64,000 nt of DNA from Protoeuglena noctilucae (GCA_958009085.1 OY253681.1:1-64000); one strand, 5' to 3'; shown: positions 3,038 to 61,974, counted from the stretch's first letter. Made by a program: numbers and translations. The notes: a model not told the origin generated them from the sequence alone.

Positions 3038-6000
3038 ATGAGCAGCCGGACGAGCACCGGCGGGGAAACGCGTGACACCCGGGACGCGGAGGGGGACAGC
3101 GGCGCGTCCGAGGGCTCGGGACGGCACGAGTACCAGTCCTGGACCTTCAGTTCCCTGGATGTGTCGAGGTAGGGCGCGAGGCTTGCGTTTCCGGTGGCCC
3201 CCGTCGCCCGGCGGCCAAGAAATTCGCGCGCTTCCGATGCACGCACAGCGAATTCCCGGACGCCGACCTTCCGCTGCTGGACCAGCTGCGCATGCGTCAG
3301 AAGACACGACGAGATGTGCGTCTGCGCGAGACGGAGATCCTCGGGCACCTGGAGCGGACGTACCGGTCGCGCATCGCGCAGCTGGAGCAGCAGGTGGCGT
3401 CCCTGCAGGAGCAGGGCAAGGTCCAGCGGCGCCTGCACGAGCAGGAGCTGCGACAGAAGCAGGCGGACGCGGACAAGATGCGGGAAGTGGTGAGCGGGCA
3501 GGGAGGACGCGCGGCTGCGGCTGCGCGTGACCGCCCTCCGTGGTCCAGCCACGCACGTGCCCTCCCCATATCCTCCCGCAGCTGCACCGGGAGCTGACGG
3601 AGCTTCAGCGGAGGCAGGAGACCCTGGAGGCGGCGGGGCCCGCGTTCCACGCGCAGCTGCAGGCGGCCCGTGACCAGCTGCGGGACGTGCACGTGAGCGA
3701 CGCCATGTATGCGGAGCTGTCGAGGATCCCGGAGGACGACCGCCTGCTGGCGGACGCGGTGCGGCTGACGGTGTACGAGGCGCTGCGGGACCTGCGGGCG
3801 GAGAACGAGCGGCTGCGGAGGGCCAGCGAGGGCGACCGGGAGGCGGCGGCGAGGGCGGAGGAGGAGCGGGAGCGGCACCGGAGGGCGGCAGCGGCGGCGG
3901 AGGCGCGGGCGGCGGAGCGGACGAGGGAGGCGGCACGCGAGGTCGATACCCTGTCGGCGCGCCTCGAGGTGGGGGAAGGGGTGGCCGGGTATGGAGCGGT
4001 GGGCGGCGTGGCGTGGGTGGCTAGCTGACCCTGACCACCCCCCTTTCCCTGCGCGCAGCGGGTGGAGAACGAGCTGAGCGAGGCGCTGCTTCGGTGCGAG
4101 GTGCTGGGCGCCAAGGGGTCCATGTTCGACGAGGTCAAGGGGGAGCTGGACGCGCTGCGGCAGGCGCACGAGGGGGCGCTGGCGGAGATGGCAGCACTGC
4201 GGCGCATGCAGTGAGGGGGGGGGGGGGGGGGGGGGTGGCTGGCCATGACGCAGCGTGCACCTGCAGACGGGCTTGCCCCCCACGCTGCCTTGGCTGCCCT
4301 CCCTCGCAGGGACGACTTCCAGGACCTCCGCACGCAGCACCGCGATGCCACGCACCGCCTGGAGCTCCTCGCCCAGGACCGGGCGCACGTGGTCCGGCAG
4401 GCGGAGCTGCTGCAGCACCAGGTGCAGCGCCTGGAGGAGGAGGGCGCCGCCAAGGACGCGCGGGTGGCGGAGCTGAAGGCGGCAAGGGACCGGCTGCAGG
4501 AGCGGCTCATGGCGGGCGCGACGGGTGAGGGGGATCAGATCCGTGGGGTGCATGGCGAGTTGGATGCGGGCCCGCATGCCGTGGCTGTGCGTGACCCAGA
4601 CCCTCCGCCTGCTCTCACGCCCTCCCCACCGTCTGCTGTGTCCCCAGACTCGCGGGCCGAGTACGAGGCGCGCGTGCAGGGGGAGATCGCGCAGATCCGC
4701 GCCGAGAGCGAGCGTGAGGTGGACCGCGTGCGTCGGGAGATGGAGCACGGGTACGACCGCGAGCTGCGGGTGGTGCGGGAGCTGCGGGATGCGGCAGTGC
4801 AGGACGCGCGGAGGGCGGAGGAGAAGCTGGAGCAGGCGAGGGATGGGGGATAAGAGAGGGAGCCTGTTTGGATCGGGAAGCACCCCCGGTGCGGCTCACG
4901 AGACATGGCTGGTTGTCGTGTCGCGCCCTCAGGTGCGCCAGCAGCTGGAGGCATCTGTGGCGGACCACCAGGCGCGGTCCAAGGCGGCGGACGTGCGGGA
5001 GGCGCAGCTGCTGGGCCGCGTGGAGGTGCTGCTGCTGGAGCGTCAGCAGCTGCAGGCCACGGCCGACGAGCGGGGGGCGCGGTGCGCGGCGCTGCAGGCA
5101 GAGGCGGACCAGGCGGCGGAGAGGGCGCGGCACCTGAGGGAGCGGCTGCACGCGATGGAGCACGAGATGGCGCGGCGGACGGCCGACCTGGGTGAGGGGG
5201 TGACACGGGGACGCTGCGAGTGTGCGACGCGTTGGCCGCTGGGGCGTGGTCGACGGTTGCTTCCCCCTTCACCGCAGAGGCGCGGCTGGAGGGGGCGGAG
5301 GACAAGCTGCGGCACTACGAGTTGCTGGAGAGCCAGATGGACCAGGCCATCCTGAGCGCGGGGGCGGCCGTGGCTGGGGCGGGGGAGACGCCGGGGGCCG
5401 TGGCGGCGGCGGCGGGGGACGAGGGCGGGGGCGGCGTGGTCGCTGCTTGGCCCGAGGGCGGCGGCCGGGGAGTGGTGGCGCCCCGCAGCGCCGCCGCGGT
5501 GATCCAGGCGCTGGAGGGCGCCGTGCCGATGGCGGTGCGCCGCCGCGTCAAGCAGGCGCTGGTGCTGGCGGCGCGGTGCAGCGATCTGGAGGTGTCGCTG
5601 GGGCGCGCGGAGGCGCAGGCGAGGGAGGCGGAGGAGCGGGCGCGGTCGCTGGAGGCGGAGCTGCAGGTGGCGCGCAGCCGCGCCGACCGCGTGGGCCAGC
5701 CCCAGAGCTTCGTGCTGGACGAGATGGACCGGCTGGAGGTGCGGGCGATGAGGGCGGAGCGGCGGGCGAAGCAGCTGACGGAGAGTCTGCGGCAGGCGGG
5801 GGAGGAGCGGGGGCAGCTGCGGAGGGACCTGGAGGCGCTGCTGGAGGACCAGGCGTCGTTGGATGCGCTGAGGGAGGCGGTGGCTGCGGGGGCGGCTAGG
5901 GGAGCAGGGGGGGCGGGGCCTGCGGGGCCGAGGACCACGCCCCCCCGGCCGACTCGGTTCGGCCCCAGCGCGGCCAGCGGGACAGTGGCTGGCCCTGCGC

Positions 6001-6218
6001 AAGCCGCGTCCCGCCCTGGCTCCCGCCCCCTGTCGCGGCAGCCGTCCGCAGGGGGCGCAGTAACCAAGGACGCCGAGGTTTCCGCCGGGTCCAACGCCGG
6101 CAGTGGGGGTGGGCGGGCCCCGCTGCCCCGGGCGGGCGCCGCCGCAATTGCGCCGAGGGTGGCAGCACGGCCGGGCGTGGGCCGGTCCAAGACCATGGCG
6201 GTCATCTCTGTTCGTTAG
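3038..6218 (+). CDS. PIBF1: PIBF1/CEP90-like centriolar coiled-coil protein (multi-exon)
   Basis: Coiled-coil exons. The segments SRAEYEARVQGEIAQIRAESEREVDRVR, KLRHYELLESQMDQAI, VPMAVRRRVKQALVLAARCSDLE, QPQSFVLD and DLEALL match the PIBF1 C-terminal half (PTTAKRRLKQSVHLARR, QPYRYLIE, DLEQLL). Confidence 0.85.
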
Positions 6219-6476
6219 TTGTATGCCATCGCTTGCGCTTGACTGTGCGACGCGTGGCGTGATTGGCCTTAGCTTCCCCAGTGCGCGACATTCAATGCAT
6301 GGAGCGCAACCTAGAGTGAGTTCACGGATCGTCGACAAAGTGTGTGAAACGAAAGCGGCTTTCGTCCTAACCTCCCATCCCAATTTCGACTCTAACCACC
6401 TCTTCCAAGCGCTTGCTAGAGTTCCTGCTAGTATCCCATTCCCAACGATCCTTTCAGTAGCTAGTGCGACGCAGCA

Positions 6477-9400
6477 TCACATGGCCAGGGCCACCGCCGC
6501 CCCCAGGGCCCCCACGATGCCGGCCAGGATGGCGCTGGCCCTGGCAGACGCGGTGCCGGAGACGATGACGAGGGAGCTGGGGGTGGAGGGCGGCGTGGGG
6601 GTCGCGGGGGGCGCGGGGGTGGTGGGCCCCGGCGTGGGCAGCGCCCCAAAGACGGTGGAGGTGCTGATGGAGACGGCGGGGGCGGTGAAGGCGTAGAGGG
6701 GGGAGGTGGCGTCGGTGGCCGCGGCGGAGAGGGAGGCGGCCACCTGGTCCCGCAGACCGACGCCGGAGCTGAGGGCGTACTGTGCCACGTTGGCCCAGGA
6801 GGTGTTGGACGTGCGCAGCGTGAGGTTGAGGGTGAGCGTGAACTGCGGGGGGAGAAGAGAGGAGGGCGGCGTGCTGCAGGTTCTTTGCGCACGGCGCGAG
6901 CGTGGACAGGGACAGGGCGCCTGGCTGCAGGTAAGCTGCATCACTCACGTCCGAAAGTGCCCTGCGCGACTGTGCCTGGGTGACGATGACGTCGCTGAGG
7001 GCGATGCCGGCCACGTTGCCGGCCACGAAGAAGCTGTACGCCGTCTTCTGCACCACCGAGATGACGCCGGCGACGACGGCGGGCGTGGGCTGCTGGGCGT
7101 ACGTGACCGCGAGGGTGAACTTGAGCCCGGCGAGGAGGGGCGCGGGCGTGACGACGGGCGGCACCGTGTCGTCGATGGTGATGTTGACGGAGAAGGTGTC
7201 CGAGGTGGAGTAGCCGTTGCTGGCGGTAGTCGGGCTGCACTGGACGGCGATGGTGACGGGGGCACCCGTCACCTGGGGCATGGCGCTCAGGTACAGGCCC
7301 GTGGGGGAGGCCGAGGTGGCCTTGAGGGTGGAGCCGCCCGTCGCCGACGCCTGCACCGACAGCTGGGGCCCCGACCCGGGGGTGGCGCATGTGATCTGCA
7401 CCGTCTGGTCGAGCGCCTGCACCTGCAGCAGGTCCCCCACCGCGTACTGCGTGCCCTCGATGGCCTTGATGGCCGTCACCACGGCGCCGGGGGTGGCGGG
7501 CGTGCCCTGCAGGGTGAGGGCCTTGGGCCCGGCCAGGAACACCACTGCCTGGTTGCGGACGAGGACGTCGAAGGACGCCTGCTGGGCGCTGGTGTAGGTG
7601 CCGGCGGACGCCGTGGGGGCGCACTTGTACGTGACGAGCGTGTCCTTGGGGACGGCCAGGGAGGTGGGGATGGCCACGCCCACCGCCTGGCCCCCGAGGA
7701 TGCTGCTGCCGGTGCCGAGGAGAATGGAGGGGATGTCGGGGAGCACGGCGGTGTTGGAGGAGGCGCAGGCGACGGCGACGGAGGCGGTGGGGGGCACGGT
7801 GGTGTAGAGGGACGCCAGGGTGCCGGGCAGGGTGGTGCTGAGCTCCATGACGCGCACGGTGGCCGAGAGCGTGCCGGTGGCCAGCAGCTGGCCGGGCTGC
7901 AGGGGCGAGGTGCCGTCCGCCGCCGTGCCGGGGCTGGACCCCGCCGCGGCCAGGATGCCCCGGGCGAGGACCTTGACGGTGAACTGCACCGACTCGGTGC
8001 CCGTGTAGGGGCTGACGGGGCACTGCGGGGGGGAGATGGGGGGGAAGTGGGCAGTGACGGCAGTTAGTAGGCGAGTTGAGAGCATTTGCAATGAGGTGGG
8101 CAGCATATAGTGGGAGCATGTCAGCGTCGGCATCAGCAGTTGGGCAGACAGGCCGAGGGCAGAGCGCCAGGGCGCACTCGCCTGCACGGTGCAAGTGTAG
8201 GTGACGGAGGTGTCTGCCGTGACGGGCGCCGAGGCGGGGATGGCCGCGACGACCCCGGCGTTGGTGAGGGAGAGGACGTTGAAGTTGGCGAGGATGGCGG
8301 CGTTGGACGACATGCAGTTGACGTCGACTGCGACGGCGGCCGTCTTGGCCTGGAGCTGGACGGCGGAGGACGAGGCCGTCTCGGACAGAAGGGTGGGGAC
8401 GAGGGTGGCGGGGCCGGGGGCGGAGAAGCCGACGTTGGTGGCGGCGGTGACGGGGAGGATGGTGGCGGAGTTGACGGAGGAGGCGCCGGCGAGGGCGAGG
8501 ATGCCGTGGTAGAGGACCAGGACGTCGAACTTGGCCGTGTCCGAGGCGGGGAGGCCCGAGGCGAGGGAGGTGGGGGCGCAGGTGTAGGTGACGACCGTGT
8601 CCTTGGAGAGGGTGCCGGCGGGGGTGGGGATGGGGAGGGCCACGAGGGAGCCGGAGGGGACGGAGAGGCTCGTCATGTCCTGGAGCACCGTGCTATTCGA
8701 GGAGGTGCAGGCGAAGGGGACAGAGGCCGAGGCGGCGCTGTTGAGGCGCAGGGTGGCCACGTCGCCCGGCTGCGTGGCCTGGCCGTAGCTGACGGTGGGG
8801 GTCAGGGTTAGTGACCCGCCCCCGGTGATGTCGGTGACCTTGCCGAAGGCCACGAGGGTGCTGGCGCGGCGGGCGGACGCGGAGGCCTCGACGATCGGGT
8901 ACAGGCGCTGCACGAGGACGTCGAAGGCGACGGTGGCGGTGACGGCCGTCTTGGGCACCTCGGGGGTCCCGGTGGGCGTGGGCGTGGGGGAGGGCGTGGG
9001 GGAGGGGGTAGGCGACGGCGTGGGGGAAGGGGTGGGGGAGGAGCCGGGGGAGGCGGCGGGGGCGGCGGTGGCGATGGCGGGAGGGGGCGTGGTGGCCGCC
9101 TGCGGGGAGGGGAGGGCCGGGAGGTCAAGTCAGTTTACTCACAGCAAGGGCACGGTCTGCGGCAGTGGGCAGTGGGCAACACAGGGCACGCCTGGGCAGG
9201 TGGAGCCAAAACACACAGCAGGCATCCGCCCACGCACTCGCCTGCAAGGTGCACGTGTAGGTGACGACGGTGTCGGTGGCGACGTTCCCCGCCGCGGGCA
9301 GCGGGACGGCGACGGCCGTGGACCCGCCTGCCGGGATGACGATCCCCGGGATGTCCGGGAGGAGGCTGGCGTTGCTGGATGCGCACGCGTAGGTGGTGCT

Positions 9401-12400
9401 GGACTGGGGCGGCGCGGACGGCAGCAGGGCGACGCGCGTGGAGCTGGCCACGGTTCCCTGCGGCACCACGAGGGTGCGCGCGCGGCTGCCGGTGCCCGTG
9501 AGGACCGTGCCGGGGGAGAGGCGCGTGGCCCCGTCCGCGGCCGTGCCCGCCGACTGCCCCGCGACGGCGTCGAGGGAGAGCCGCGCCACGAGGACGCCGA
9601 AGGTGACGGAGACGGAGTGGTCGTAGCCGCCCGCCGTGGACAGGGGGGCGCAGGTGTAGGTGACGAGCGTGTTGGTGAGGACGGGGAGGGCGCGCGGGAT
9701 CTGGAGCGCCACGGGGGTCACGTTGTTGACGGTGACGTTCTGGATGTCGGCGAGGAGCGCCGAGCTCGAGACGCAGCTGATGGGGACGGGCGCCGTGGGG
9801 GCGACGTTGACGAGGAGCGACACCTCGGCGCCCAGGAGGTTGTCTGCGCCCTCGTAGACGACGACGGCGCGGGAGAGGGGCCCGGCCCCGGAGATGTCGC
9901 TGCCCTGGGTGATGGTGGTGGTGCCGTCCGCGGCGGTGAGGGACACAGCGGCCACGGCGCGCAGGGTGCGGGGGAGCACGGCCACGTCGAAGGCCACGGC
10001 CTGGGTGGACTTGAAGCCGGACACCACGGGGGCGCACGTGTAGGTAACGACGGTCCGGGCCGACACGCTGGCGGGGGCTGGGAGGTTAATGGGGTTGGCG
10101 GCGGCGCTGGTGATGTCGATGCCCTTGACGTCCGTCATGACGGCGGGGTTGCTGGAGGCGCAGGTGAAGGAGACGGTGGCGCCCGGGGTGCCGTTGGACT
10201 TGAGGGTGGCCACGGTGCCCGGGTTGGGCGCGACGGTGGTGAGGAGGACCGGGGTTAGGGTCGCGTCGCCCACGGCGAGCGTGGCGTCGACGACGATCTG
10301 CTTGCCGGCGAGGGAGGGCTGGGCGCTGGCGGAGAGGACGGTGGCGGCGAGGGGCACGACACGGACATCGAAAGAGACGGTCTGCGTGGTGAGGAACCCG
10401 CCGGTGTTGGAGGTGGGGGCGCAGGTGTAGGTGACGAGCACCGGGCTGTCGATGGGCGCCGACTGGGGCATGGGCACGGGCAGGGGGGAGCCGGACGAGA
10501 GGGAGAGCCCGGAGACGTCGGCGAGGATGGTCGGCTGGGATGATGCGCAGCGGAAGGGGACGATGGCCGAGGGCGTGGCGTTGGGGGTCAGCTGCACGAC
10601 CTGGGTGGAGGAGCCGGCCAGCTCAATGATCGACACCGACTTGGCCAGGTTGCCGGAGACGAGCGTGGTGTTTGGGGCGAGGGTGGTCGTGCCGTCGGCC
10701 GCCAGCTGCCCCGAGACCACCGACTGGGGCGTCACGGTCAGGTTGAGGACCTGAATAACGAACTTGAGCGTGTCGGTCTTCTTGAGGCCGCCGACGTCCG
10801 CGGTCGGCGCGCACGTGTACGTGACGGTGGCGTCGGCGGCCACGGCCCCGGGCGCCGGCAGGGTGACGGCCACGGGGGAGTTGTTGGACACGACCACGCT
10901 CTTGATGTCGGCCATGACGGCGGGGGTGTCCGAGGTGCAGGCGAAGGTGACGGGCGAGGAGGGCGCCGCGTTGGCCTTGAGGGCCACCGTGCCGCTGCTC
11001 TGGGCCTGCAGCTCGTACGCCCGCATGGTCTTGCCGGCGCCGCCCCCCGTCACGACCGTGCCCACCACGAGGTTGCTGCCGTCCGCGGCCGTCTGGGTGG
11101 TGGCGGCCACGGCGTCGACCGCCAGCGCCACCACGCGCACGAAGAACTGCACGCTGTCCGTGGTGGCCAGGTTGCCGAAGGAGGTGGTGGGGGCGCACGT
11201 GTAGGAGACGTCGGCGCTGGCGTCGACGGGGAGCGGCGAGGGCAGCGGCAGGAAGACGGCGGCGGCCGAGTTCTGGATCTGCACACCCGTGATGGGCGCC
11301 ATGACCTGGGCATTGCTGGAGGCGCAGGCCACGGTGCCGGCCGCGCCCGGGGCCACGTTGGGCACCAGCTGGACCTTGCCCGCGTTGGTGGCGTCCGTCT
11401 CGTACACCACCACCTCGAGCGCCGGGTTGAGGGCGGTGGCCAGCAGCACGGTGCTGGAGGCCAGCGCGGCCCCCTGGGCGCTGACGGCCCCGACCCCAGC
11501 CTCAGGGGTCAGCTGGGCGGGGATGACGTAGAGGTCGAACTTGGCGCTGTGGTTGGCGCTGGTGGGGTTGTAGCCGCCGGCGCTTGCGGTGGGGCTGCAG
11601 GTGAAGGTGATGGTGGTGGGGGCGCTGATGCCGACGATGCTGGGGACCGTGAAGGGCACCGCGAACGTGGAGGTGGCCTTGATGCCCGTGATGCTCGTGG
11701 CCTTGGTGGCGTCGCTGGACGTGCACGTGAAGGTCACCTGCGCGCTGGGGGCCACCAACAGCTGCAGCGCCACCAGCGTGGCGTTGGCGGGCGCCCCCTC
11801 GTACACCACGAGCGTCTTGCGGTCGCTGGGGGTGGTGCTGTAGCCGATGGAGGTGCCGGGGGACACCGTGGCGCCGTCCAGCTTGCGCGTGGCGGACCCC
11901 GTGCCCACCACCACGTCCACGCCCAGGGGCGCCACCACGACGTCGAACTTGGCGGTGAGGCCGGCCGTGACGTTGACGGGCGCGGGGGTGGAGGCGACGG
12001 TGCACGTGTAGGTGATGGTCTTGGTGCCCGAGGCGAGGGGCGCGGGGGCCGGGAGGGGCATGTTGAGGGTGGCGGAGGACGAGACGGCCAGCCCCTGCAT
12101 GTTGCCCATGGCCGCGGTGTCGCTGCTGGTGCAGCTGAGGGTGGCGGACGAGGCCTGGCTGAAGGTGAGGACGACGGACGTGGCGTTGGCAATGCCCTCG
12201 TACACCAGCACCGTCTGGCACAGCTGCCCGCTGACCAGCCGCGCCCCGGGCGCCAGGGCCGACCGCGTGGGGGTGGCCTGGATGGCCGCGCTGCCTGCCA
12301 CAGCATACATCTCGTAGCGGTAGGGGGGGGGGGTGCCGACGAGGATGCCCTGGGGGGTGGTACCGTTGCTGGCGGTGAAGGTGACGGCGGTGCCCGTGGA

Positions 12401-15400
12401 GGGGTTGGAGATGGCGGCCGTGGTTGTGGACAGGCACTGCACCGTGACGGACGCGCCCGGCTGCCCGGACAGCACCACCTGCACCAAATCGCCCGCGGAC
12501 GTGGACGCCCCGGCCACCACCCGCACCACGTCCTGCGCCGCCAGGGCTGTGCCGGCCGCCACGGGGAACGCCCCCGCGCCCAGGGTGGCGGAGGCGCCGG
12601 CGAGGATCTGGATGGCCAGGGGCACGGCGTCGACGTAGAAGACGGTGGTGTCGGTGGTCGCCATGCCTCCCCCCGCGGTGGGGGTGCATATGAGGGCCAC
12701 GGGGATAGGCGTGCGCACGATGCCGGTGCTGGTGGTGACGGTGCCCAGGCGGATGCCCTGGGGCTGCGTGCCGTTGGCGGGGGAGAAGGTGACGGTGTAG
12801 TCGCTGGCCGTGAGGGAGTCGGGGAGCACGCCCGTCGACTGCGACTGGCATGTCACCGTCACGGACGCCGTGGGGTTGCCGTTGAGCGCCACCTGCACGC
12901 TGGCGCCCGCTGTGTCGGACGCCCCCTCCTGCCGTCGCACCTCGAGCCCCGCGGCGTTGGCCTGCGTCAGGCCCGGGGCCGACAGCACCGTGCCCTTGGT
13001 CAAGGCAACCCCGCTCTCATTCACGGCCGCCGACCCCGCCTGCACCTGGATTGTCAGCGGCACGGCGCGCACCGTGGCCGACCCCGCGTCCGCCGCCAGC
13101 AGCCCCCCCGTGGGCGTGGGCGTGCACGTGACCACCACGTCCTGCGCCGCACCGAGCGTGTCGACCACCGCAGGCAGCAGCAGGTCCTGGGCCACCGTGC
13201 CTGTCAGCGCCGTGAACTTGACCGAGGCGGCGGGGTTGGGCAGCACGGCCGGGGCGGAGCTGGTGCACGTGACCGTCACGTCCGCGGTGGGGTTGCCCGT
13301 CAGCACCACGCGCAGGGACGCGCCGGGGGAGTCGCTCTGCGCCTCCACGCGCCGCACCTTGCCCGTGAGGCTCGTGGCACCCACGGCGTACTTGGCGCCC
13401 GTGGCGTCGTTGATGGCGCTCGACCCGGCCACCATGACCACGTACAGGTGGCGGAGCAGGATGGTGGCTGAGGCGGGCTCGTCCGTGCCGATGCCGCCCA
13501 GGCCGTCCGCCGTGCAGGTGAGCGTCACGGTGGTGTCGGCCGTAACGTCCGCGGCCAGGGCCGGCAGCGTCACATTCTGGGGGGTCGCGCCGTCCGTCGT
13601 GGTGAAGCCGAAGGAGGAGGCCGGGCTCGGCAGCAGGGCCGTGTTGTTGGAGGCGCACGTGACGGTCGTGCCGGCCGAGGGATTGCCGTTCAGGGCCAGC
13701 TTGAGCGTCAGGCCCGGGCCGTCGGTGGTCCCCTCCACGAACAGCACCGTCTGGTTTGGGCCCAGGGCCGTGCCCGCCGTCAGCGCGCGCCCGTCCGCCG
13801 CCCGCGCCGCCGTCCCCGCCTGGATGACGATGGCCAGGCACAGGGCGCGCACGGTGACGCTCTGCGTTTCGCTGGCCCCCACGCCCCCCTGCCCGTCCGC
13901 GGAGCACACCACGCTCACGTCCGTGTCGTGGCGCACGTCCCCCACCGTGCCCAGCTTGATGTCTTTGGCCGTGGCGTCCATCAGCGTCACGGTGTAGTCC
14001 GACGCAACGCCGTCCGACAGGTAGGCGGGGGTGGCCGAGCGGCACGCCACCACGGTGGCCGCGGTGGGGATGCCGTTGAGGCCCACGGAGAGGGTCTGGC
14101 CGAGGGTGTCCGCGGCCCCCTCCAGGCGCGCCACTGCGTCCGACGGCCCCAGCGCCACTCCCTTGGCCCATGCGGCGCCCCCGGGCTGCACGGCACCCGA
14201 ACCGGCGCGGATGACGATCTTCAAGGGCGTGGCCGCGACGGTGACGGTGGCCGCGTCCCCGGCCGCCAGCCCCCCCGCGGCCGTGACGGCGGCGCACGTG
14301 ACCACGACGTCCTGCTCCGCGCTGATGGAGGCCACGGTGCCCAGGCGCACGCCCTGGGACGCCGCGCTCGTCGAGAAGGTCACTTGGTAGTCGGCGGCGG
14401 TGGTCGAGTCGGGGAGGGCCGACTGCCCCGAGGCCACCTTGCACGCCACGGTGACGGAGGTGGTGGGGACGGCGTTGAGCGCCACCTGCAGCGTGGCGCC
14501 CCGCGAGTCGGCCTGGGCCTCCACGCGCTGGACCTGCGAGCGAGGGCGGGGATGGGGCTGTCAAGGCCAGCAGGGAACATCCGTGCTCATGACGTGCGAG
14601 AGGGTGGGGCACGGGAGCATGACCCAAGGGCAAACGAGTTACCCGCGATGCACAGAGCGCAGGAGGACGCTAAAAAGAGAGACAGCGGCGCAATCAACGA
14701 ACAGCAGGCCCTGCTGGCTCGCCTTGTTGGTGATGGCTGCCCCGACCGCATAGGCCGTCCCACCCGCGTCGACGGCGCTGGTGCCGGCCGTGATGAGGAT
14801 GCTGAGCTTGACTGCCTGGACGTAGAAGGACTGCGTCTCGGTGGCCGCGAACCCCCCCGCGGCCAGTGGGGCGCACCGCACCTCCACGACCGTGTCGGCG
14901 GAGATGTCCGCCACCGTGCCCAGGCGGATGGGCTGGGGGGTGCGGCCGTTGGTGCCGGTGAAGGTGAGGACGTAGTCGGTGGCGTTGGCCGAGTCGGGGA
15001 GGGTGGTGGGCGCCTGGGACGTGCACGTGACGCTGACGGACCCCGTGGGGTTGCCGTTCAGCCGCACCTGGGCCGACGCGCCCAGAGAGTCGGGGACGCC
15101 CTCCACGCGGCGCACCTCGCGGCCCGCGCCGCCGCCCGTGATGGCGGTGCCCTTGGCCAGCGCGGCGCCCGCGTCGCTCACGGCGCTGGACCCCGCCTCG
15201 ATGACGATGGCGATGGGCACGGCGTGCACGACGGTCGTGGCCGTGGCGGGCAGCAGGCCGGAGAGGCCCCGCCCGATGCAGGTGAGCGTCACGTCCGCGG
15301 GGGCCGAGATGGACCCCACGGCCGGGAAGGTGAGGTTCTGCGGCGTGGCCCCGTTGGCGGTGCTGAAGGAGAGCGTGTAGTCGCTGGCGGACGAGGACTG

Positions 15401-18400: not shown

Positions 18401-18750
18401 CCGCACGTCACCGTCGCCTGGATGGCCGTGGTGCTGCCCAGGTTCACCGTGGCCACCACGTCCAGCAGGCTGGACAGGCTGGCGCCCTCGTAGAGCACCA
18501 CCGTCTGGCTCGGCGTGGCGTTGGCCAGGTTCGCTGTCGTGTCTTGCAGCGGCGTCGACCCGTCGCCGGCCGCCCCGTTCAGCAGGAGCGCCTGCGGCTT
18601 GGCCACCAGCTTGATGTTGGACGTCGACACGAACTCGGCAGCACGCGTCCCCGCCGCGAACAGGGTGCAGGCCAGGCAGACAGTAGCTAGAAGGCGCCAC
18701 CATCGGCCCTGCGGGGGCGGAGGAGCCAGCGGCATTGCACGCTTCCCCAT
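6477..18750 (-). CDS. Giant secreted/GPI-anchored repeat surface protein (~3,865 aa, 6 exons)
   Basis: Exons 18750-17965, 17884-14723, 14533-9242, 9099-8182, 8022-6949 and 6842-6477 join in phase 0. N-terminal signal peptide (LLATVCLACTLFAAGTRA). About 30 repeats of ~105 aa with CxSS...T(Y/V)TC. SPTP linker. Hydrophobic C-terminus (AILAGIVGALGAAVALAM*). Confidence 0.9.
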
Positions 18751-19392
18751 CCGACGCGTGCGCGGTGAGCCTGGCGCGCCCCGCGAGCCGCACCTCCTGA
18801 AGACCCGAACCCCCGCGCATGGCCTAACTTGGGGCTCTGAGGCCCTCAACGTCCGGAGCCCACAATGTCCACGCACCCTGCGCAGGCGGCACGCATGCAG
18901 GTTGCAGGTGCCGGCCTGTCCCAGCGGAAAGGGAAGCGCCGGCATCAGGCACAGACGGCCAGACGCCAACATTCTATGAGGAGCGTCGCGCGCGGGTGCC
19001 CAGCGCGCAAGCGGTGCGCCGCGGGGGTCGCTAACACATGCACACGCTTCGCACCCTGCTTCCTCCGGCCGGCGAGGCGCGCGAGACGATGTTCGGCCAG
19101 AGAATGGCTTGACTATCGCGTATGTAGTTGCTATGAGATCGCAAGGTCCTCAGGCGCGGCGCTAGAGGAGAAGGGAGGTTTTCTTGACAGCTTCCCCCAG
19201 ACCTACCCTTCCGCGATGTCCTTTGTGCTAAGACTAAACAACAGTAGCCACAGGCGGGCCGCCGGGCCCCCGTCGACTCGCAGCTGACGTCCCGCGGCCA
19301 TGGAGTCAGGTCTGTCATGCGAGCCCGATCGTTTTCATTGGACAAACCGCCGAGTCGCTTCACTCCGTTGATCCACGCATTGCCTGAAACCC

Positions 19393-22635
<3,243 letters not shown>

Positions 22636-43050: not shown

Positions 43051-43224
43051 TCGCGCGCAACTGCGTCGGAGGGAACCACATCATAAATCACATCGAAACC
43101 GCGCAGGAGTGAGCCGCAGAGCATCGATGCAGGCGCAGCCACTCCAGAAAGTGTGGCCGGAGTCCCCGAGAGCGGCGCGCAAGGAGCTGACCCAATGGAG
43201 AGACAATTGAGACCTAGTTTTGCA

Positions 43225-49300: not shown

Positions 49301-51073
49301 AGGACGCGGGGAGGGCCAGGGCCGTGTGGGAGTCCTGCGGGTGCGGATGCGGGCAATGGCGGGTGGCGCGGTCGCTGATGGGGGTGTGCGATGACACCCC
49401 GCGCCAGCGCAACTGTGGCCCCTCACGTAGCTGGCGCGCTGTGCCGCGGGTATGGCCTTGCTGGGGGTGTACCCCCAGTCCTCGAGGGTGCGCAGCTGCC
49501 GCGTGGAGGCGGCCGCATTGCCCCAGGTGGGCGTGACCATCACGCCCTTGCCGTTCGAGGCGGGGCGGAGGCGCGAGGCCCAGGAGAGGGTGGCGATGGT
49601 GTCGTTGGCGTGCTCCGACGTGGCGTGGATGCAGGCCAGGACCGCCACGTGGGCGGCCGAGAAGAGCGCGTCCTTGAGCCACACCGTGAGGGGGGAGTCG
49701 CGCCAGGGGATGTGCGAGAACTCGGGGCGTTTGGACGGGGCGCCGGGGCCACGCGCGGCCTTGCTCGACGCCTCGTGCACGCTCTTCAGCACCGCGCTGC
49801 AGGGGGGGGGGCAGAGCGGGAGCGTAAACCCCGCGCGAGGCGGTGGGCGCTTCCTGAGGCTGAGCGGGTGCCTCGCCGCTCATCACAGCCCTCGAGCCGC
49901 TCGCCTGAGTGCCTGGAATGCCGTGGCCTTGGCCCTCGCGGCGGCGGGGGTGTTGCGCGCGGCCCCCTCCTCCCGGGACTCGGGGCCCGCCAGGTCCACG
50001 AACGCGACGCGGGCCACCGACACCTTGCTGCCGGCGCTGCGGCGCTCCAGGTGCAGCGTCAGGGCCAGGTGCACGCCCTCGTCCAGCCTGCGGGGAGAGG
50101 GGCAGCGGTGGCGGATCAGGGCTGGGCCAGGGACCCGACTTGGCGCTTACCGTCACACCACGGCAGCGCTGGGCGTGGCAAGGCATGGCAGCTGCTCACC
50201 GGTAGCCCCCGGCGGGCCTCGTGGCCTCGGCGGCGAGCGTCTGCGCGACCTGCCCGACCCGCAGGACCTCGGAGATGTCGGCGGGGCCGTCCAGGGCGAA
50301 GAGCGTGGCGGCGTCCATGGCCTGCTGGGCGCGGCTGTCCTTGATCGACACGGGGGGGGCGCCGGGGGTGAGGAGGTCGAAGAGGAAGCCGCCGTCCGAG
50401 CCGGCTGCAAGGGAGGGGAGACCCTGTGAGTGCATGCGTGCGCAAGACATGGGTGTGTGCGTCGGGTCAGGGGAGACCATGCGACGGCCTCACCCGTGAG
50501 CGCGGTGTAGGAGGCCTTGAGGGCGAGGTTCTCGTGCGGGAGGCGCCCGATCATGCGGAAGGCCGCGGCGACGGCCTGCTGCACGAGGCCCTCGGTGGGG
50601 GAGCCCGTGGTGGTGCCCTTGGGGCCCACCAGCGTGTGGGTCTTGCCGGCCCCGGGGGCGCCGTACACCAGCACGGCCGAGTCCATCCCCTGCTCCATCG
50701 CGTCCACTGCGGGGGAGACACGCAATGCCACGTTACTTAGGCTGCACCGCCGCCAGGGGAGCTGCGGGGCACCAGTCGGCCCCTGGCGCGCACCTAGGGG
50801 CTGCACGGCGGCGTGGAAGACCTCGCGCTGGCTGGACTGCTCATCGAAGACGGCGTCGAACTCGTAGTGCGGGTACTGCCCCTTGACGTAAGACACGGCG
50901 CGGTCTGAGTCCCCGGGGCGCCGCGGCCGGACACGCACGTGGACCTGGGCGGGGAGAGAGGGTTGACGGTAGGAGAGGGAGGCGCCAAAGCAGCGAATCC
51001 CGCAAAGGGTCCGCGGTCCCCGGCGCCGCGCGGCGCTCTGAAGCACCTGCATCTTGACGCCCACGTCCGACAT
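46315..51073 (-). CDS. Divergent N-terminal-motor kinesin with coiled-coil stalk (multi-exon, spans assembly gap)
   Basis: VHVRVRP, YEFDAVF, YGAPGAGKTHT (P-loop), FVDLAGPE, HIPWRDSPLTVWLKDAL and TIATLSWASR, then heptad-rich exons. Confidence 0.9.
48498..48697. other. Assembly gap (200 N)
   Basis: Run of N next to a poly-G tract inside the kinesin gene. Confidence 1.
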
Positions 51074-52365: not shown

Positions 52366-55300
52366 ATGAAAGCGCGCGTGCTGGTAGCGTGCTTGCCGCC
52401 CTCCGCGGGGCGTGGGACAGATCCATACGTAATATCGAGTAGCATGGGGGGCAGGAGAGGCGCTAACGCGCGCGCCTTCGGCCCAGGGACGCGAGGAGCG
52501 TGGGTCGTCACCTTATCCCCGCAGCTCCGCGAGGCAGGACCCGCGGCGGCGAGAGCGGCGTTCGGAGGACACCCTCGGGACGTATTCCGCATTCGGCGGT
52601 GACCCGGACGGCCCCGTGCCCGCGCTGTCGGCGGGGGGCGTGAGCCCGCAAGGCGTGCCCGAGGCGTGGGGCACGCCCGGCATGCGGGGCCTGGAAGCAG
52701 AGGCCCTCTCCCGGCGCTCCGTGCCGCTCGCCATGCACCGCCGCGCGCGGGGCCCGCTGGCCTCCGTCGGCGACGGCGACGGGTACGGGTCCGGGTCCGG
52801 CTCGGGCACCGGCCGCCCCGTGGCGCCCCTGGGAGGCCTGGTGCTGAGCAGCCACGGCCCCGCGCACGGCTCCGACGGGCACTCTGCGCTGCACGGCTAC
52901 TTCGCCATGGGTGAGGGCCAGGTTGCAGTGTGGAGCGAGGGCGTGAGACCCCAACCACACATCGCGACGCACCGCGTCTCGTCTTCACGCAGGCAACTTG
53001 CTGGAGATGTGGGACGAGCGCGACGTCGTCCGCGCCGTGGAGCAGCCCGAGGGTTCCGAGCCGGGTCTCTTCCGAGCAGGGTCGCCGGGGGTCTCGGACC
53101 ACGACGCTTCACGGCCGGTCCTGCGGAGGGGCGAGGTGTACAGCCAGGCGAACGCGCTGGGCGGCACCCCGCGCGCCCGCCTGCGCGACGCGTCGGCTGC
53201 GTGGGTGGCGGCGCGGGACAGCGACGGGTCCGAGGCAGTACACGGAATGGGGATGGGGATGGGGATGGGCGGCCACGAGGGCCTCGTGCGACTGACGCGG
53301 GGGGAGGAGGAAATCCTCAATGTGGCAGACAGCTGGGGTGAGAATGGGGAAGAGAGGATTTTATGAATATGGGGTTGAGGCAGTGGGCAGTGGTGGGGGT
53401 CTGGACGCATGGCCCTTCCCTTGCAAACCACTGCCTTGTGTGGCGCTTGCATGGACGCCTGCTTTGCACCCGCTGGCACCTCTGCCATCGTTCAATGCCT
53501 GCCCGCAGGCCCCGCGTCCCCTTCCGCCCCCCAGCGCCTGTTCTGGCGCCCCATGTACGGTGTGGCGTGCCCGGCTGACCTGGTCCGTCCCTCGTGGTCC
53601 ATCGCATCCGTCAAGGTCGTCCGCTCCCTCGGCAGCAACGAGGTGAAGCACTAGCAAGATGCATCCAGTCTCGTCCACTTGCTCTAAGTTACCAGCTGTC
53701 GCTGCGTGTGTGGGTGCTGACCGTGCGAACAGTGCCCGGTGTTCGTGTCTGCAGGAGCTGGGCAGCATGGTGCGGAAGGTGCGCGACCGCGCGACGGGGA
53801 TGCTGATGGCGATGAAGAGCTACGACAAGGAGACGGTGGAGCGGCAGGGGACGCGGCGGCAGGTGCTGCGGGAGGTGGCGCTGCACTCGAGCATCGACCA
53901 CCCCCACGTGGTGCGCTTCTACGTGGCATTCGAGGACGACACCCATTTTCATCTATGCACCGAGGCGAGTTACAAGATATGCATGACACCCACTATGAAT
54001 AAGATGAATGACACCCACTCCCACCTATGCACTGAGGCACTCGGCATGCAATGTGCGGCTGGCCACCCAAGGGCTGCTCTCCCTAGGTGGCTCAGTCGAC
54101 GAACTCTGCTCTGTCGTGGATCTACTAACATTCCCAGTCACTCTCCACCGCAGTACCTGGGCGAGAAGGACCTGGCCGCGGCCCTGTCTGACGCGGGCGG
54201 TCGCATGCGGGAGCGCGAGGTGGCTCACCTGGAGGCGGCCCCTTTAGTGAAGCTGCTGTCGCTGCTGCACGTGCGGGGCATCATCCACCGTGACATCAAG
54301 CCGGCGAACGTCATGATGGCGGGGGCGGACGGCACCCGCGCCACGCTCATCGACTTTGGGGCGGCCATCAACGCCGAGAGGGAGAGGCCGCGCACGGTGG
54401 GGGGCACCGTGGGGCACATGGCACCGGAGATCGCAGCGCCGGTCGACAAGTTCAGGCGAGGCATGGCACAAGGGGCGGTTGTTGTCAGGGAGCGAGAGGG
54501 GTCGTGCATTCATGTTGTGTCACGCCTCGCTCCCTTGTTTCCCCCCTGCTTTCGCCTAAGCGTGTTTGCTCTCTCCCGGACGTGCCTGTCACATGGATCT
54601 ATACAGCAACCCACCCTGGCAGGTCCATGACACTTGTGGCAACCATTCTGACCCTCCCTCGCAGGGACTCGTATGGCCCGGAAGTGGACATCTACTCCCT
54701 GGGCGTCCTCGTCTACCTCTTGCTGACGGGGTCACTGCCCCCATGGCCAGGCGCCCCGGACACCGCCACGGAAGGGTCAGGGACGACAGACGGGGTGCCA
54801 CCCCACACTCCCCGCCAAGACCGCACCCCCCGCGCGTCCCTGTCGCTCCCCGGCGTGTCGCCCCACGTGGCACGCGAGCTGGCGTCGCATGGGGTGTCGG
54901 ACCTGGCTGCCGAGTGGCTGTCGCAGTGTCTGGCGGAGAGCCCCTCGTCCCGTGCCACCCCCCTGCAGCTGGCGTGGCACCCGTGGCTGCGCCCCCTTTG
55001 TGAGGCGCATGTGCAGGCGTGCCTGCATGTCGTGGCACTGCGGGGGTCCCACTCCTCCTTCGCCATGAGCCAGGACTCGTGGAGGTCCCAGGCAAAGGAT
55101 GCCGTGACTGGACACTCCAGTCACGCGCCCCATGCGTTTGCAAGTGTCGCGGGTGCGGGTGCAGAGGCGGGGGTGCGGGGGTCGTCGTGACTGGGCCTGC
55201 AGGGTCCCGGGGTGGCGAGTGGGCCTGGCGGGGCACCTGTGAATGCTTCCTCGACTGACCGCGCCAATGCATCGGGGGCGGGGAGCATGGTGGTAGCCGC

Positions 55301-58300
55301 AGCGCATGTGAGGCCGGGGCATGCGGGGGCGACTGGGGGGGGGGGGGTGGGCAGGGGCCGCCCCGGGATGCGCAACACGGCGGGCGCGGCCGCCATGAGT
55401 CTCTACGCTTTCCGCCTCCAGCAGCTGGCCACGGACGCGGTGGTGCTGGGGGTGCGTGTGGGCAGCCGACGAGAGGTGAGTGATGGGGCAGGGTGGGCAG
55501 GGCGGAGAGAGATGGGGTGGGGACGTGGTGTGACGTGAAAGCACACAGTGTGTCTGGACGATGCTTGGACTTGCTGTGAAGTGTGGGTGAGAATAGGAGT
55601 GAATGTTTGCAGGGGTTGTCATACTTAGTTCTCACCCTGCCCCTTCCACCGCTCCCACGCAGCCCCTGTCTGCCAGTCCCTTCGACAACGGCGGCGTGTC
55701 GACGGCAGAGACGGAGAGGGCGCAGAGTCGCACCATGGCCAGGACTGGGCCACGCGGGGGGGGCGGCGGGGGACTGAGGGGCCGACTGCCCAACAGCACG
55801 CGCCTGGACCTGTCGGCTCCCTCACTCAGCGCGGCACTGGCACAGAGGTGAGGCGGGGAGTGGGGTTGGGTTAGGTGGTGGCAGTACGAGCAGGGTCGTT
55901 TTGCTGATGAGAAAATGCGACGTGCACTCGGCCAACATCCCTGTCACCCACCCTCGCACTCTCCCCCGTCACAGACAAGCATTTATCGCAGACTATCACA
56001 TAATCACTCACTCCCCTTCTCGCAGCTCCCATTCGTCCCTGGAGCACCGCATGGGCGCCACGGCCGCGTTCCCGAGCCCCCCCGCGCGCCCCTTCCCGCG
56101 CCCCTCCTCGACCATCGCCGCGGAGTCGGAGGCGGGGAGCCGGGGCAGGCGGTCGGGGGTACCGCAGGGCTCAGAGGGACGGTACTCCGCGTCTCAGTCC
56201 GAAGAGCGGGGGGTGGTGGCGGGGGCGGCGCGGGGTGGCGCGAGTGCGGGCGCGGGGCTGCGGAGGGCGTCGAGTGGGACGGGGGCTGTGGCGTGGCCGG
56301 AGGGGCCTGGCATGGGGTGGGTGGAGGTGGGAGATGCGTGGGGGTTGCCGCGCAGGGTGGGTGGTCCCTTGGATGAGGCCATGCAGGCCATCGAGGAGCA
56401 GGACGAGCGAGGAGCGGGTGAGGGGATGGATGAGAAGTGGTTGATACATGTCGGTGGTTGATTTTGATACAATTGATTGCCGGTCACATTGGCACCGTCG
56501 GTAACCTGTGGTGCGTAACACAACTGTGACGTTCCTGTCACGCCCTTCCCCCGTCGCAGGCGAGCGCACCTCCAACGCCCGTCCCTCCATGCACGCGCCC
56601 CCCCTCCCCCTCCCCGCCTCCCCGAGCGCTAAAGGCCTGCCATCACCCACCACGCCCTTGGCACGGGCAGTCACGTCTGCTGAAGAAGCCCCGGGTGCGA
56701 GAGGCAACCGGACGCTGCGGGAGGCGTCGTCGCGTGCCGTGGCGGTCGAAGTGACGGTGCCCGACACCGCCCCGCGTGCCGCGAGAGGGGCAGCCGTGGC
56801 AGTGTCGGTGGCAGCTGCGCGTGGGCAGGGCGTGAATGGCCACGCGCTGCCGGCGTCGTCTTTGTCCTTCAAGGGCGGCATGGTGATGGCGTCGCTGGGG
56901 AGCGTGGATGGGTCCGACACGGGCGCTGAGGGCGACGAAGAAGGGCTGGGGTCCACGCGGGGACAGGGCGGCACGCCTGGGCCGGACCGGCGACGCACCC
57001 GCAGCCGCTTCCTGTCGCTGGGGAGGAGGGAGCCGAGGGTGGCGGTGGGCGACGAGGGGGCGGCGCGCATGGCGCCCGTCGTCAAGGCGAGCGCATGGGC
57101 ATGGATCAGTTAGATGGTAATGAATTTATCTATCTCTGATGCCCCGTGGCTGAGGATGCCTCATCTACTCTCTTGCATACCAGTTGCGGACTCAACTCTC
57201 CCGTGCCTGCACCGCATCATCACTCGCCTCTCCTCACTCAACCCCCCGCAGATCCCCTCTCGCCGCTCCCGCGCTGTGGTGGTGGATGAGGGAGCGGCGG
57301 ACTGGTCCGCGTCGCCTCTGGCGTCCCCAGCTGAAAGGCGTGCCGTGGCTCAAGGGGCGCCTGGCCCATCCTCGCCCCCCCAGCGCGAGAGCGGGGCTCA
57401 GTCGGGGGAGGGCAGCGAGGGATTGAGCGCGCCCGGGGCAGATGCGCAGGCGGGGGCGCGGGGGGTGCGGTCACGTGCGGCGTCGCTCGCGCAGGGGACT
57501 GTGCCCGGGAGCGACAGCGCCACTCGGCGTGGGAGTGGGGGCACGGTGGGCCGGGAGGAGGAGGTGGGGAAGGGTGCGCGGCCGAGGGCGACCAAGGTGC
57601 TCTGCGATGGGGTGGCCGTGAATGTGGACGTGTGCGGGGAGGGGCGGGGGAGGCGGCCGGGCCTGGTGTCGCGGCTGAGCCGCAAGCTGCTGCTGGTGAG
57701 GGGGAGTGGGGAGGGGTGGGGTTGTCTTGGTCTTGTTGGTTGCCTTGCAGCACATCTGTACTACCAGTACTACTGCGGACATGACATGCGCTGTGTGACA
57801 CGTGTGACATGTGCTGTGCGCTGTGTGTGAAATGTAAATTTTACACTGGTAACACCCATCCCATCTTCCCCCCGCAGTTGACGACGAGTGCCGCCCCCAG
57901 TCAGCTGTCCACGCAAGTGCTGTCCACCCCGTCCGACGGGGGCAATACCCTGCGAAGGGACGACCCTAGACTGGCACATCCCGAGGCGTCGCAGCCGGCG
58001 CTGGGGGAGTCGCGGGCGCGCACCGAGGGCCGCCACGCACCGGCAGAGGCGCATGTGTCATCAACGAGGAATGTGAGGAAGGTACTGACGGACTCGGCGG
58101 CGGATGAGGGGGGCCGAGGGCGGCCGGCCGAGGGGGGGTGGCTGGCCAAGGTCGCCAGGACGCTCTCGCTGAGGAGACAGCTCAGCAACGGTGAGGGGCG
58201 AAATGCGGAGATACGCTTGCCACTCTGTGCGGTGTCCATCAGTACAGCAGGCAGCAGGAGTGTCAATACATCGTCACACGACCCCATGCCTCACCTCTGA

Positions 58301-59570: not shown

Positions 59571-61974
59571 TCACTTGCGCTTCCCCCGGCCGCGCTTGGA
59601 CAGGTGCTCGTCCAGAGCGCGGTTGGTCGCCCCGGCAATCGCGGCCCCCAAGTCATCCCCAAGCTCACCCCCACCGCCCTTGTTAACCCCATCGCCATCG
59701 CCGCCCTCCCTCTTGGCCCCATCCGCAGCCGCATCCGTCACCGGTGCCAGGACCACTGCCCCACCCAGGGCCGCGTGCAGCCCCGCGGCGTCCTCCCAAG
59801 GCAGCAGCCCCACTCCAGGCAGCCCGGCAGTGCTGGCGAACGCGGTTGGCTTTCCCAGGAGGGACGACCCCGGTCGCCCCTCTACCGCCCGCGCCCCCCG
59901 CGCCGCCTCCCTCCGCTTCCCCCGCCGCAGCATCGCTCGCACGAAGGCGTCCAGCACAGCGTGCCGCACCCGCACCCCCCGCAGCGCCACCACGGCCCCC
60001 ACCGCCGCCCACTCCGCCCCGGCTGACAGCGCGTCCAATCGGTCCACCCCCCACGCCTGCCACGCCCCCGCCTCGCGTCGCCAGGACTGCGCCCACGCCA
60101 CGCATCGGTCCCCCTGAGCCACGGCCCACCCCGATGCCGCCTGCACTCCCCTGTCCACCCACGTCACCACCACCCCCCGCCACCGGCGCACCGTGCCCAC
60201 CCCCCACGCCCGCACCATCCCCGGCCACTCCCGCGCGTCTCTCGGTAGCGATCGCATATGCGCGACGGCTTTCTGTGCGCGCTGCAGCCCCCACCAGGCC
60301 AGATACGCTCCCCTGCGCCCCAGGTCCCACATCATAACAGCCGGGTTACCCTCGAGCCATCCCCCAAGCACCTCCGGTGCGTCGTGATAGTCCGAGGGAA
60401 GCAGGTGATCGTCCACCGGGGCGCGGAGAGGGCGGGAGGCAGGCAACGGGGCAGCGGGGCGCGTGGCGGGGGTGACAGGTGGGGGGGGTGGGTCGGTGGG
60501 GAAGCGTGACGTCACGAATCGGTGGAGGGAGCGGGCGCGGCGGAAGTTGGAGCCGAAATCGAGGGGGAGGAGTCGGGAGGAGCTCTGCGGGAATGTGGGG
60601 GTGTGGGTGTGGGTGCGGGTGTAAGTGTGGGTGGGGGAGTAAGCGTGGGTGTGGGTAGCAGCGTGGGTGTGGTTGCACGCATGCCGGTGCTTGCAATGCA
60701 CCATGCGCAATGCATTATGTGCATTCACTACTACATCGACCTCCACATCCACATCCCCATCCACTCCTCATGCTAAGCTCCCTCGCCTGGAACTCGACGC
60801 GGCATCCGCCCTCCTGCAACGGCACGACACGCAGTGCGACGTCGGTGGGGATGCCAAGAAAGGACACGGATCGTGCAATAGCAGTGAGGGGCTCCGAGGA
60901 GGCCCCCGTGGCGAGGGTGCTGGCGGAGTCGGGGCCAGACGTGAGGATGACGGCGCCCATTCGCCAGGTCAGGAAGGGGAGCAGGGCCGAGAAGACGTCA
61001 TGGGCGGGGGCCTTGGCGACGGGGGGCCAGACGCGGCGGGCGTGGGGGTCGTAGATGACGTGGGGGCGGTCGGTGGCGAGGCGGGTGCAGCTGCGGGGGG
61101 GGTGGGAGGGGGGGAAGTTGGGGGGAGAGCAAGGGCGTCCGGGTAAAGGGGGGCGTGAGGGTGAAGATGGGTGTGAGGGTGAACGAAGGAAGGTGTGCGG
61201 GTGACGAGAGGGTGTGAGGGTGCACAAGGGCACTCACCTGAACCATCGCCCCTTGGGGCAGCGTGTGGGGAAGGGCAGGGTGCGTTTGGTGCGGGGACGG
61301 GGAGGGTCGGGGGCACGCATCCGCACGGCAATCTGTGAGAAAGGGGGCGCGGGGAGCCGTGGCGTTGCGCCGGTATGGCAACGTGCTGTCAGCTGGATCA
61401 CAGTCATAGTCACAGTTGCATTACAAGGGACCCAGCAACTCCTCACCATGATGGAGCAGATAATCAACAGCACCCATATCCACTGGGTCTGTCGGGCGAG
61501 GGGCAAGGCGCGCGCCCAGCCGAGGGCCAGGTGCAGCGCGGGCCGCACGACCCACATCACCAGGCGGAGTGCCGCGCGCGTCAGGAGGCAGGCCAGGCTC
61601 AGCGGGATGTAGAGGAAGAATTGCAGGAGACTGACGAGGACTCTGATGAGGAAGAAACGGCGCAGCGCGGCCCCCGCGGCAGACGCAACGCTGCGGTGGC
61701 GAGGGGCCAAGTGCGGTGAACGCGGGGCGAGATGCCGCGAGCCGAGCCGCGCGATGTCTGCAAAAATTATTGCACACCTGACGAGGATGGGCCAGAGAGC
61801 CTCATCGTCGCTGGCTGGCCCGTCAAAGACGGGCGACAGGCCCGGGTTGTTGTAGTGCTGCCGCGCGGGGAGGACGAGCGTGAGGAGGCCGATGGCGACG
61901 CCAACTGCGATATGAGGAAATATCGAAGATTGTGCAATGCCCGGCTTTGACGAAGAGATTCCCTGGGAGCGCAT
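59571..61974 (-). CDS. Membrane protein with DUF1499-like domain
   Basis: Hydrophobic N-terminal helices. SFLGIPTDVALRV...RVEFQ|SSSRLLPLDFGSNFRRAR resembles the DUF1499 motif F.DDV...RSxSRxGxxDxGxNxxR. Confidence 0.6.

Follow-up and report, generated by a model that had tools for sequence, protein, structure and literature searches.

Genes and GC donors in the window

The window analyzed here is a stretch of 64,000 nt from Protoeuglena noctilucae (GCA_958009085.1, OY253681.1:1-64000; positions are counted from its first letter) with a G+C content of 69.1% and a single gap of 200 N at 48498-48697. Judged from the introns that are supported by RNA, roughly three in ten introns of the window begin with GC. 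The corresponding GC..AG segments are absent from RNA contigs, interrupt conserved domains at the bases given below and end in acceptors like those of GT introns. Two Pfam scans of the window identify the families Trehalase, Pkinase, Guanylate_cyc, Gcd10p, Kinesin (weak), DNA_pol_A_exo1, Ank and ECM29_N as well as weak RING matches. Because so few domain families are found, most of the genes cannot be pinned by homology.

A first-pass annotation of the same sequence described GC-AG introns as very frequent and listed 22 GC donors. At all 22 coordinates the stated strand carries GC, followed by GAG at 18 sites and by AAG at four (39539, 27930, 34082, and 46995). G occupies position -1 in each case, so that all 22 positions read G/GCGAG or G/GCAAG (the solidus marks a junction here and below). 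The annotation was also right in stating that most donors follow an exonic AG, which holds for 20 sites, the exceptions being 25162 (CTG) and 31669 (ACG). The donor motif alone proves nothing, however, since such strings are common at this composition: AGGCGAG occurs 39 times across both strands of the window.

RNA-supported introns

The RNA evidence consists of assembled contigs, not reads, from four marine metatranscriptome runs of one study (X1-X4), which were aligned to positions 24500-44499. The four runs contain 30-44% of the words sampled from 25000-34999, as expected for exon-only content. The joint table covers 15 of 43 joints, and with the alignment ambiguity of each joint resolved, ten can be read only as GT..AG and four only as GC..AG, while one fits no splice rule. 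The four GC..AG joints lie on the plus strand at 25162-25259 in a RING-finger gene (98 nt, CTG/GCGAGT, joint present in X1, X3 and X4, with no other GY..AG reading), at 31669-31763 (95 nt, ACG/GCGAGT; X1, X3 and X4), and at two places in the trehalase gene, where 41583-41664 (82 nt, CAG/GCGAGG), which is absent from the earlier list, and 41794-41886 (93 nt, in frame and stop-free, AAG/GCGAGT) are both joined in X1 and X4. A fifth GC..AG intron, 26760-26914 on the plus strand (155 nt, CAG/GCGAGT), is the only GY..AG reading of the paired contig pieces 26524-26755 and 26911-27168, which are contiguous within X3 and X4 records.

The GT-AG introns with RNA support provide a comparison set from the same region. 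On the plus strand these are 24732-24810, 24886-24970, 25418-25504, 25993-26123, 26308-26411, 31260-31341, 31416-31505, and 41374-41485, together with an additional one at 24474-24556, which was recovered by mapping the loose contig end at 24556 to 24443-24472; on the minus strand they are 42897-42984 and 43061-43399. The RNA-supported introns thus comprise five GC-AG and eleven GT-AG introns, a GC share of 31% (Wilson interval 14-56%) for one stretch of 20 kb, and all 16 end in AG. At a rate of 2%, the probability of five or more GC donors among 16 introns would be about 1e-5. Two more contig-piece ends fall on GT donors, at 28411 (-) and 27171 (+), which brings GC to five of 18 donors. The earlier statement that GC donors lie far above the roughly 1% of model eukaryotes is therefore borne out, and its estimate of more than 20 in roughly 100 introns is, if anything, low when compared with four of 14 resolvable joints or five of 16 introns.

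Nine of the listed donors lie inside the aligned region. Those at 25162, 26760, 31669, and 41794 are confirmed directly by RNA. For the two sites in the cyclase gene, 34082 and 34318, contigs end loosely at exactly the acceptors proposed, 33960 and 34203, and their overhangs continue a closely related upstream exon. No RNA evidence is found among the joints listed for 27930, 29401, and 39539, and two of the three loose-end strings did not map within the window.

The cyclase contigs share their downstream exons and differ slightly in the upstream ones (...MIFS in place of ...MVFS), at both 33960 and 34203, which points to a closely related paralogue, or to another strain, in which the introns occupy identical positions. 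The joint that fits no splice rule, 33960/34183 (with one side of 21 nt), was rejected as a splice and is read as a contig of a near relative. Separately, short purine-rich, GAGGAG-like tracts at 33769-33800 and 37123-37154 are covered very deeply by contigs of a single run, X2 (a depth of 383 is reached in the bin 33171-33837). Loose ends and chimeric joints are numerous among these contigs, which in all likelihood come from other organisms and match through low complexity.

Homology across exon junctions

Each proposed exon was translated separately, and Pfam profile coordinates were compared across the junctions. In this way six sites beyond those with RNA are pinned by Pfam, kinase or trehalase homology (21848, 34082, 34318, 39539, 53965, and 54456), and two, 27930 and 49904, are pinned in part. 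In the TRM6/Gcd10p gene, Gcd10p positions 107-144 end at the last residue before the donor at 21848 and positions 145-215 begin at the first residue beyond the intron 21760-21848 (-; 89 nt, CAG/GCGAGC). In the class III cyclase gene, Guanylate_cyc positions 53 and 55 flank the intron 33959-34082 (-; 124 nt, AAG/GCAAGG), and the RNA contigs of the relative that are loose at 33960 are preceded there by ...TACA, which fits the same junction. The exon downstream of the second cyclase intron, 34201-34318 (-; 118 nt, phase 2, TAG/GCGAGG), begins at profile position 14/15, and the loose RNA end at 34203 fits its acceptor. A comparison of the N-terminal cyclase exon with longer proteins gave no match.

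The first-pass annotation had stated that several of these introns fall inside catalytic motifs. Two of its examples lie in the cyclase gene, where the junctions at 34082 and 34318 read AYK/YETVGD and VFS/DVV, respectively. The third, TEFSQ/EKY, was wrongly included: it is conserved but not catalytic, as it lies in TRM6/Gcd10p, a non-catalytic subunit.

The protein kinase gene contains two pinned introns on the plus strand. The Pkinase match 13-78 ends at 53965 and the profile resumes with position 79 at 54154, on either side of the intron 53965-54153 (189 nt, in frame and stop-free, GAG/GCGAGT). A search with the unspliced read-through as query returned three matches, among them P0122 from a public assembly, which is about 50% identical across the query, lacks exactly the 63 residues encoded by 53965-54153 and reads ...HLCTEYLHGKS... 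in their place. The second intron, 54456-54664 (209 nt, phase 2, CAG/GCGAGG), is flanked by Pkinase positions 168 and 173, and the sole GT alternative nearby, GTTCAG, is without G at +5. Within the first of these introns, 53965-54153, the final ~27 nt of the exon upstream recur in diverged form, GAG/GC junction included, chiefly at 54011-54040. Judged by sequence, an origin by tandem duplication of the exon end would fit this arrangement; P0122 has no insertion at the position.

The trehalase gene contains three GC and two GT introns. Near its 5' end, residues 46-82 of the pedinophyte trehalase P0002 align in a tblastn search from exactly 39618 (E = 0.001), the first base after the intron 39539-39617 (+; 79 nt, CAG/GCAAGT, acceptor CCGCAG). 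The following intron, 39986-40128, is a GT intron whose position follows from the frame, and 40128 is also where two RNA contigs begin. Homologues align on either side of 41583-41664, and Trehalase positions 463 and 469 flank the intron at 41794. The best relatives found with the trehalase exons are 32-39% identical, and those with names are mostly green algae and plants. A quick trehalase tree, built from 44 rows selected among 120 matches, leaves the window sequence on a very long branch of 2.9 units without a clear position.

Two introns are supported by one-sided or loose homology and are classified as probable. The first residue downstream of 27838-27930 (-; 93 nt, CAG/GCAAGC), in a 3'-5' exonuclease domain, corresponds to DNA_pol_A_exo1 position 138, and no GT alternative was found; the exon upstream gave no Pfam match. 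In the kinesin motor domain, the profile covers positions 203-242 before and 274-325 after the intron 49797-49904 (-; 108 nt, CAG/GCGAGC), a loose bracket, and reading through would meet two stops.

Donor and acceptor context

The proposed introns also differ from their surroundings in composition. Codon periodicity is lost in 21 of 21, with a G+C content at third codon positions (GC3) of 0.77-1.0 in the flanking 90 nt vs. 0.46-0.78 within the introns, and all 21 end in a C-rich tract followed by CAG. In a set of 24 GC donors, which was partly selected for the motif GC[GA]AG, position -1 is G in 24, -2 is A in 22, +3 is G or A in 24, +4 is A in 24 and +5 is G in 24. G at +5 is likewise found in 10 of 10 GT donors and in all 16 RNA-supported donors, 15 of which have G at -1. 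Among the RNA-supported donors, [GA]AG at +3 to +5 occurs in five of five GC donors vs. seven of 13 GT donors (Fisher p = 0.09); put the other way, C stands at +2 in five of 12 donors with strong +3 to +5 positions and in none of six with weak ones. The acceptor CGCAG is common to the GC and the GT class (for 15 RNA-supported introns, C at -3 in 15, G at -4 in 14 and C at -5 in 12) and is an unusually strict and G+C-rich consensus. Neither a U12-type donor ([AG]TATCC) nor a U12-type branch motif (TCCTTRAY) occurs in any of 34 introns, and an Rfam search of the window gave no families and no small nuclear RNA (snRNA) gene.

The power of reading frames to identify GC donors was measured with a home-made Viterbi gene finder whose donors were GT plus one other dinucleotide, 14 of which served as decoys. 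Without signal matrices, or with matrices from its own GT predictions, the finder chose 29-36 GC donors vs. 7-37 for the decoys, which are not separable. Frame-joining through a nearby GC is thus weak evidence on its own, because decoys are chosen about as often, and this caution applies to the nine frame-placed sites described below. With donor and acceptor matrices from ten RNA-supported GT introns, in contrast, GC yields a score gain of 179 vs. 95 for the best decoy, GG, and 22-73 for the others, and 18 of the chosen GC donors carry [GA]AG at +3 to +5 vs. 0-4 per decoy. Expressed as usage, 18 of 471 GC[GA]AG strings are chosen vs. 27 of 2960 for the 14 decoys (p = 1e-5). The window contains GG[GA]AG 492 times and GC[GA]AG 471 times, so these two strings are equally common. 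The finder recovers three of 15 RNA-supported introns exactly and was used for this contrast, not for intron counts. A content-drop score around donors gave no information either, given the shortness of the exons.

Further probable and candidate introns

Nine listed sites are placed by frame, periodicity and consensus (4836, 8181, 9241, 14722, 29401, 46735, 46995, 57087, and 60786), with repeat spacing as additional evidence at 8181. Three of them lie in a giant gene on the minus strand (6457-17971). Its four long exons amount to at least 3,675 codons at a GC3 of 0.95-0.99, and no Pfam family matches it. The product consists of repeats of ~130 residues in which the motif ...VTYTCAPT...F.V.V is conserved and which have a linker rich in Pro, Thr, and Ser. 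Excision of the probable intron 8023-8181 (159 nt, in frame and stop-free, CAG/GCGAGT) brings F to position 22 after VTYTC, the spacing of seven repeats that are not interrupted, while reading through would add 53 unrelated residues; GC3 drops from 0.93-1.0 to 0.74 within the segment. The probable intron 9100-9241 (142 nt, CAG/GCGAGT) occupies the same place in the repeat, is required to join two long frames and has no GT within 21 nt. For the third, 14534-14722 (189 nt, AAG/GCGAGC), read-through meets two stops and no GT alternative was found.

In a coiled-coil gene, 4836-4932 (+; 97 nt, CAG/GCGAGG) is a probable intron by frame, loss of GC3 and the lack of a GT alternative. The candidates 29261-29401 (-; 141 nt, CAG/GCGAGG), 46877-46995 (-; 119 nt, CAG/GCAAGC), and 60585-60786 (-; 202 nt, CAG/GCGAGG) are proposed from frame and periodicity, and 57087-57383 (+; AAG/GCGAGC), whose acceptor is uncertain (57251 or 57383), from frame. 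The candidate 46562-46735 (-; 174 nt, in frame and stop-free, CAG/GCGAGG), proposed from periodicity, is the weakest of the set, and GT alternatives with G at +5 are present at +15 and +19. The listed donor at 48894 (-) is donor-like (AAG/GCGAGG), and the intron-like sequence that follows (48698-48894) ends in a C run at the gap.

The gene finder added a new candidate past the cyclase domain, 33183-33273 (-; CAG/GCGAGG), and an RNA piece ends at 33181, at its acceptor. Three further donors on the minus strand are gene-finder predictions only: CAA/GCGAGC at 20881 (20597-20881), GTG/GCGAGG at 20439 (18709-20439), and AAG/GCAAGG at 49148 (49024-49148).

Explanations for the frequency of GC donors

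These results confirm the observation made in the first-pass annotation and support its interpretation in part. GC-AG introns are usually compensated, with a strong remaining match to U1 offsetting the C at +2. The introns of the window are probably ordinary U2-type GC-AG introns of this kind, in a genome of ~69% G+C whose donors are compensated and under GC pressure. In such a mechanism, T would have changed to C at intron position +2 in roughly three of ten introns. An unaltered U1/U6 machinery would tolerate the C since the rest of the consensus is in place, with G at -1, A in most cases at -2, a purine at +3, A at +4, and G at +5. Where such compensation exists, GT donors would be turned into GC under a strong mutational or conversion bias favouring G+C, and the resulting frequency of GC donors would be intermediate between those of pelagophytes and Emiliania huxleyi. 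Of the causes named in the first-pass annotation, GC pressure is plausible and fits both the 69% G+C and the explanation published for E. huxleyi and pelagophytes. The same annotation spoke of relaxed recognition of the 5' splice site, which finds no support: all RNA-supported GC donors read GCGAG after G, and the donor context points towards, without proving, a recognition that is compensated rather than relaxed.

Several points weigh against this explanation. The unaltered U1/U6 machinery is an assumption. A metagenome scan for orthologous introns, at which a change from GT to GC would show, returned 80 loci of 29-37% identity, mostly on long, prokaryotic-looking contigs, and none was close enough for a comparison. 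The invariance of GC[GA]AG is partly circular, as the nine frame-only sites were picked for that consensus, and the contrast in donor strength among RNA-supported introns is not significant. Furthermore, the RNA comes from a single metatranscriptome study, in contigs instead of reads and with 15 of 43 joints covered, and one of these joints, 33960/34183, obeys no splice rule. Finally, the gene finder recovers only three of 15 RNA introns, and without the extended consensus it chooses decoys no less often than GC.

The alternative that fares best, also named in the first-pass annotation, is a changed machinery. A variant U1 5' arm, for example one whose base opposite +2 forms a pair with C and a wobble with U, or else a variant U6, would make C equal to T at +2, and GC donors would be more than tolerated exceptions. 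A share of ~30% GC donors, far above the usual ~1%, would agree with this, as would the G at +5 in all 16 and at -1 in 15 of 16 RNA-supported donors, which hints at a recognition code in which +2 counts for less than other positions. A 2024 survey also mentions more flexible splicing as a possible feature of E. huxleyi and Aureococcus (PMC11347168). Full equivalence of C and T is at odds, however, with the absence of C from the six weak donors as compared with five of 12 strong ones, albeit in small numbers, and the window contains no snRNA gene. On balance a changed machinery is unlikely. A related and similarly doubtful possibility is that donor position +2 is not read at all and that recognition proceeds via G at -1, G at +1 and the invariant G at +5. 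An altered U1 5' arm or a shifted U1/U6 balance would bring this about. GT and GC would then be interchangeable, with a ratio drifting with genomic GC content. If, in addition, the DNA were of the green lineage, as weak hints from trehalase and TRM6 would have it, the trait would have an independent origin outside haptophytes and stramenopiles.

That the listed GC donors are often annotation errors, with true introns using a nearby GT or the segments being coding, is very unlikely. Frame-joining does not separate GC from the decoys, five of the introns contain no stop and keep the frame (8181, 27930, 41794, 46735, and 53965), and a frame-keeping GT lies within 21 nt at 15 of the 21 sites examined, the six sites without one being 4836, 9241, 14722, 27930, 41794, and 53965. 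Yet a GT donor is excluded by RNA at the five covered sites, while read-through and shifted donors are ruled out at 21848, 34082, and 53965 by the contiguity of the profiles and by P0122. Most of the GT alternatives also lack the G at +5 that is seen in all 16 RNA-supported donors, so that at most a few of the nine frame-only sites could fall. Least credible of all is an origin of the GC-AG introns by copying of a mobile introner that carries its own GC donor: such elements occur in GC-rich marine algae, and the introns at 8181 and 9241 begin with nine identical bases, but an all-against-all blastn of 34 introns gave only matches of 13-17 nt, nearly all at splice signals, and the lengths range from 79 to 297 nt.

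Relation to known systems and significance

In animals, fungi, and plants, GC-AG introns make up ~1% of introns (Frey and Pucker 2020, PMC7072748; Pucker and Brockington 2018, PMC6310983). The introns of the window resemble these U2-type GC-AG introns in their termini, their major-spliceosome signals and the strong consensus of the remaining donor, and differ from them in a frequency that is some 20-30 times higher. The closest precedents for such a frequency are found in GC-rich marine algae. For E. huxleyi, Feldmesser et al. (2014; PMC4028052) report GC in 56% of 241 hand-mapped junctions and a GC/GT ratio of about 60/40 in expressed sequence tags and RNA-seq, about 56-64% overall, with AG as the acceptor throughout; the trait is ascribed there to the 65% GC genome, and gene models based on GT-AG are described as wrong. 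In pelagophytes, predicted GC-AG introns amount to about 14-17% in Aureococcus anophagefferens and ~14% in Pelagomonas calceolata, which is ascribed to GC content, and introns measure 103-177 nt on average at 0.2-0.9 per gene (bioRxiv 10.1101/2024.10.30.620910). Many non-canonical introns in the lineages of E. huxleyi and Aureococcus are also described in the 2024 survey cited above.

The 69.1% G+C of the window falls within the nuclear G+C of about 63-70% expected for this group of algae. The window shares with E. huxleyi its GC-rich DNA, a large share of GC donors and the retained AG acceptor, whereas GT remains in the majority here (11 of 16 RNA-supported introns). Nothing places the window in the haptophytes, as the nearest named relatives of its trehalase are green algae and plants at 32-39% identity. 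The GC content of the window is also similar to the 69.8% reported for Prasinoderma coloniale, but agreement in a single figure is a coincidence and says nothing about affinity. With pelagophytes it shares a high GC content, short introns (79-339 nt in the window) and a GC share of at least 14%; in contrast to theirs, the RNA-covered genes of the window contain at least three to five introns each. The GC share is apparently higher than in pelagophytes, but its interval of 14-56% includes their values. The introns of the window represent the same kind of trait as is known from GC-rich marine algae. Should the host be neither a haptophyte nor a pelagophyte, they would represent a further independent case; should it be one of the two, the trait is already known there.

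The practical consequence concerns gene prediction, as gene finders restricted to GT-AG would mis-predict about one third of the introns in this genome. Callers based on open reading frames (ORFs) read through 8023-8181, 27838-27930, 41794-41886, 46562-46735, and 53965-54153, because the length of these segments is divisible by three and they are free of stops; the stored ORF P0121 begins inside the intron 53965-54153 and continues through the next one. A new question would arise only if U1 or U6 proved to be altered. The window adds a data point in which extreme genomic GC content goes together with a shift of donors from GT to GC at an unchanged acceptor.

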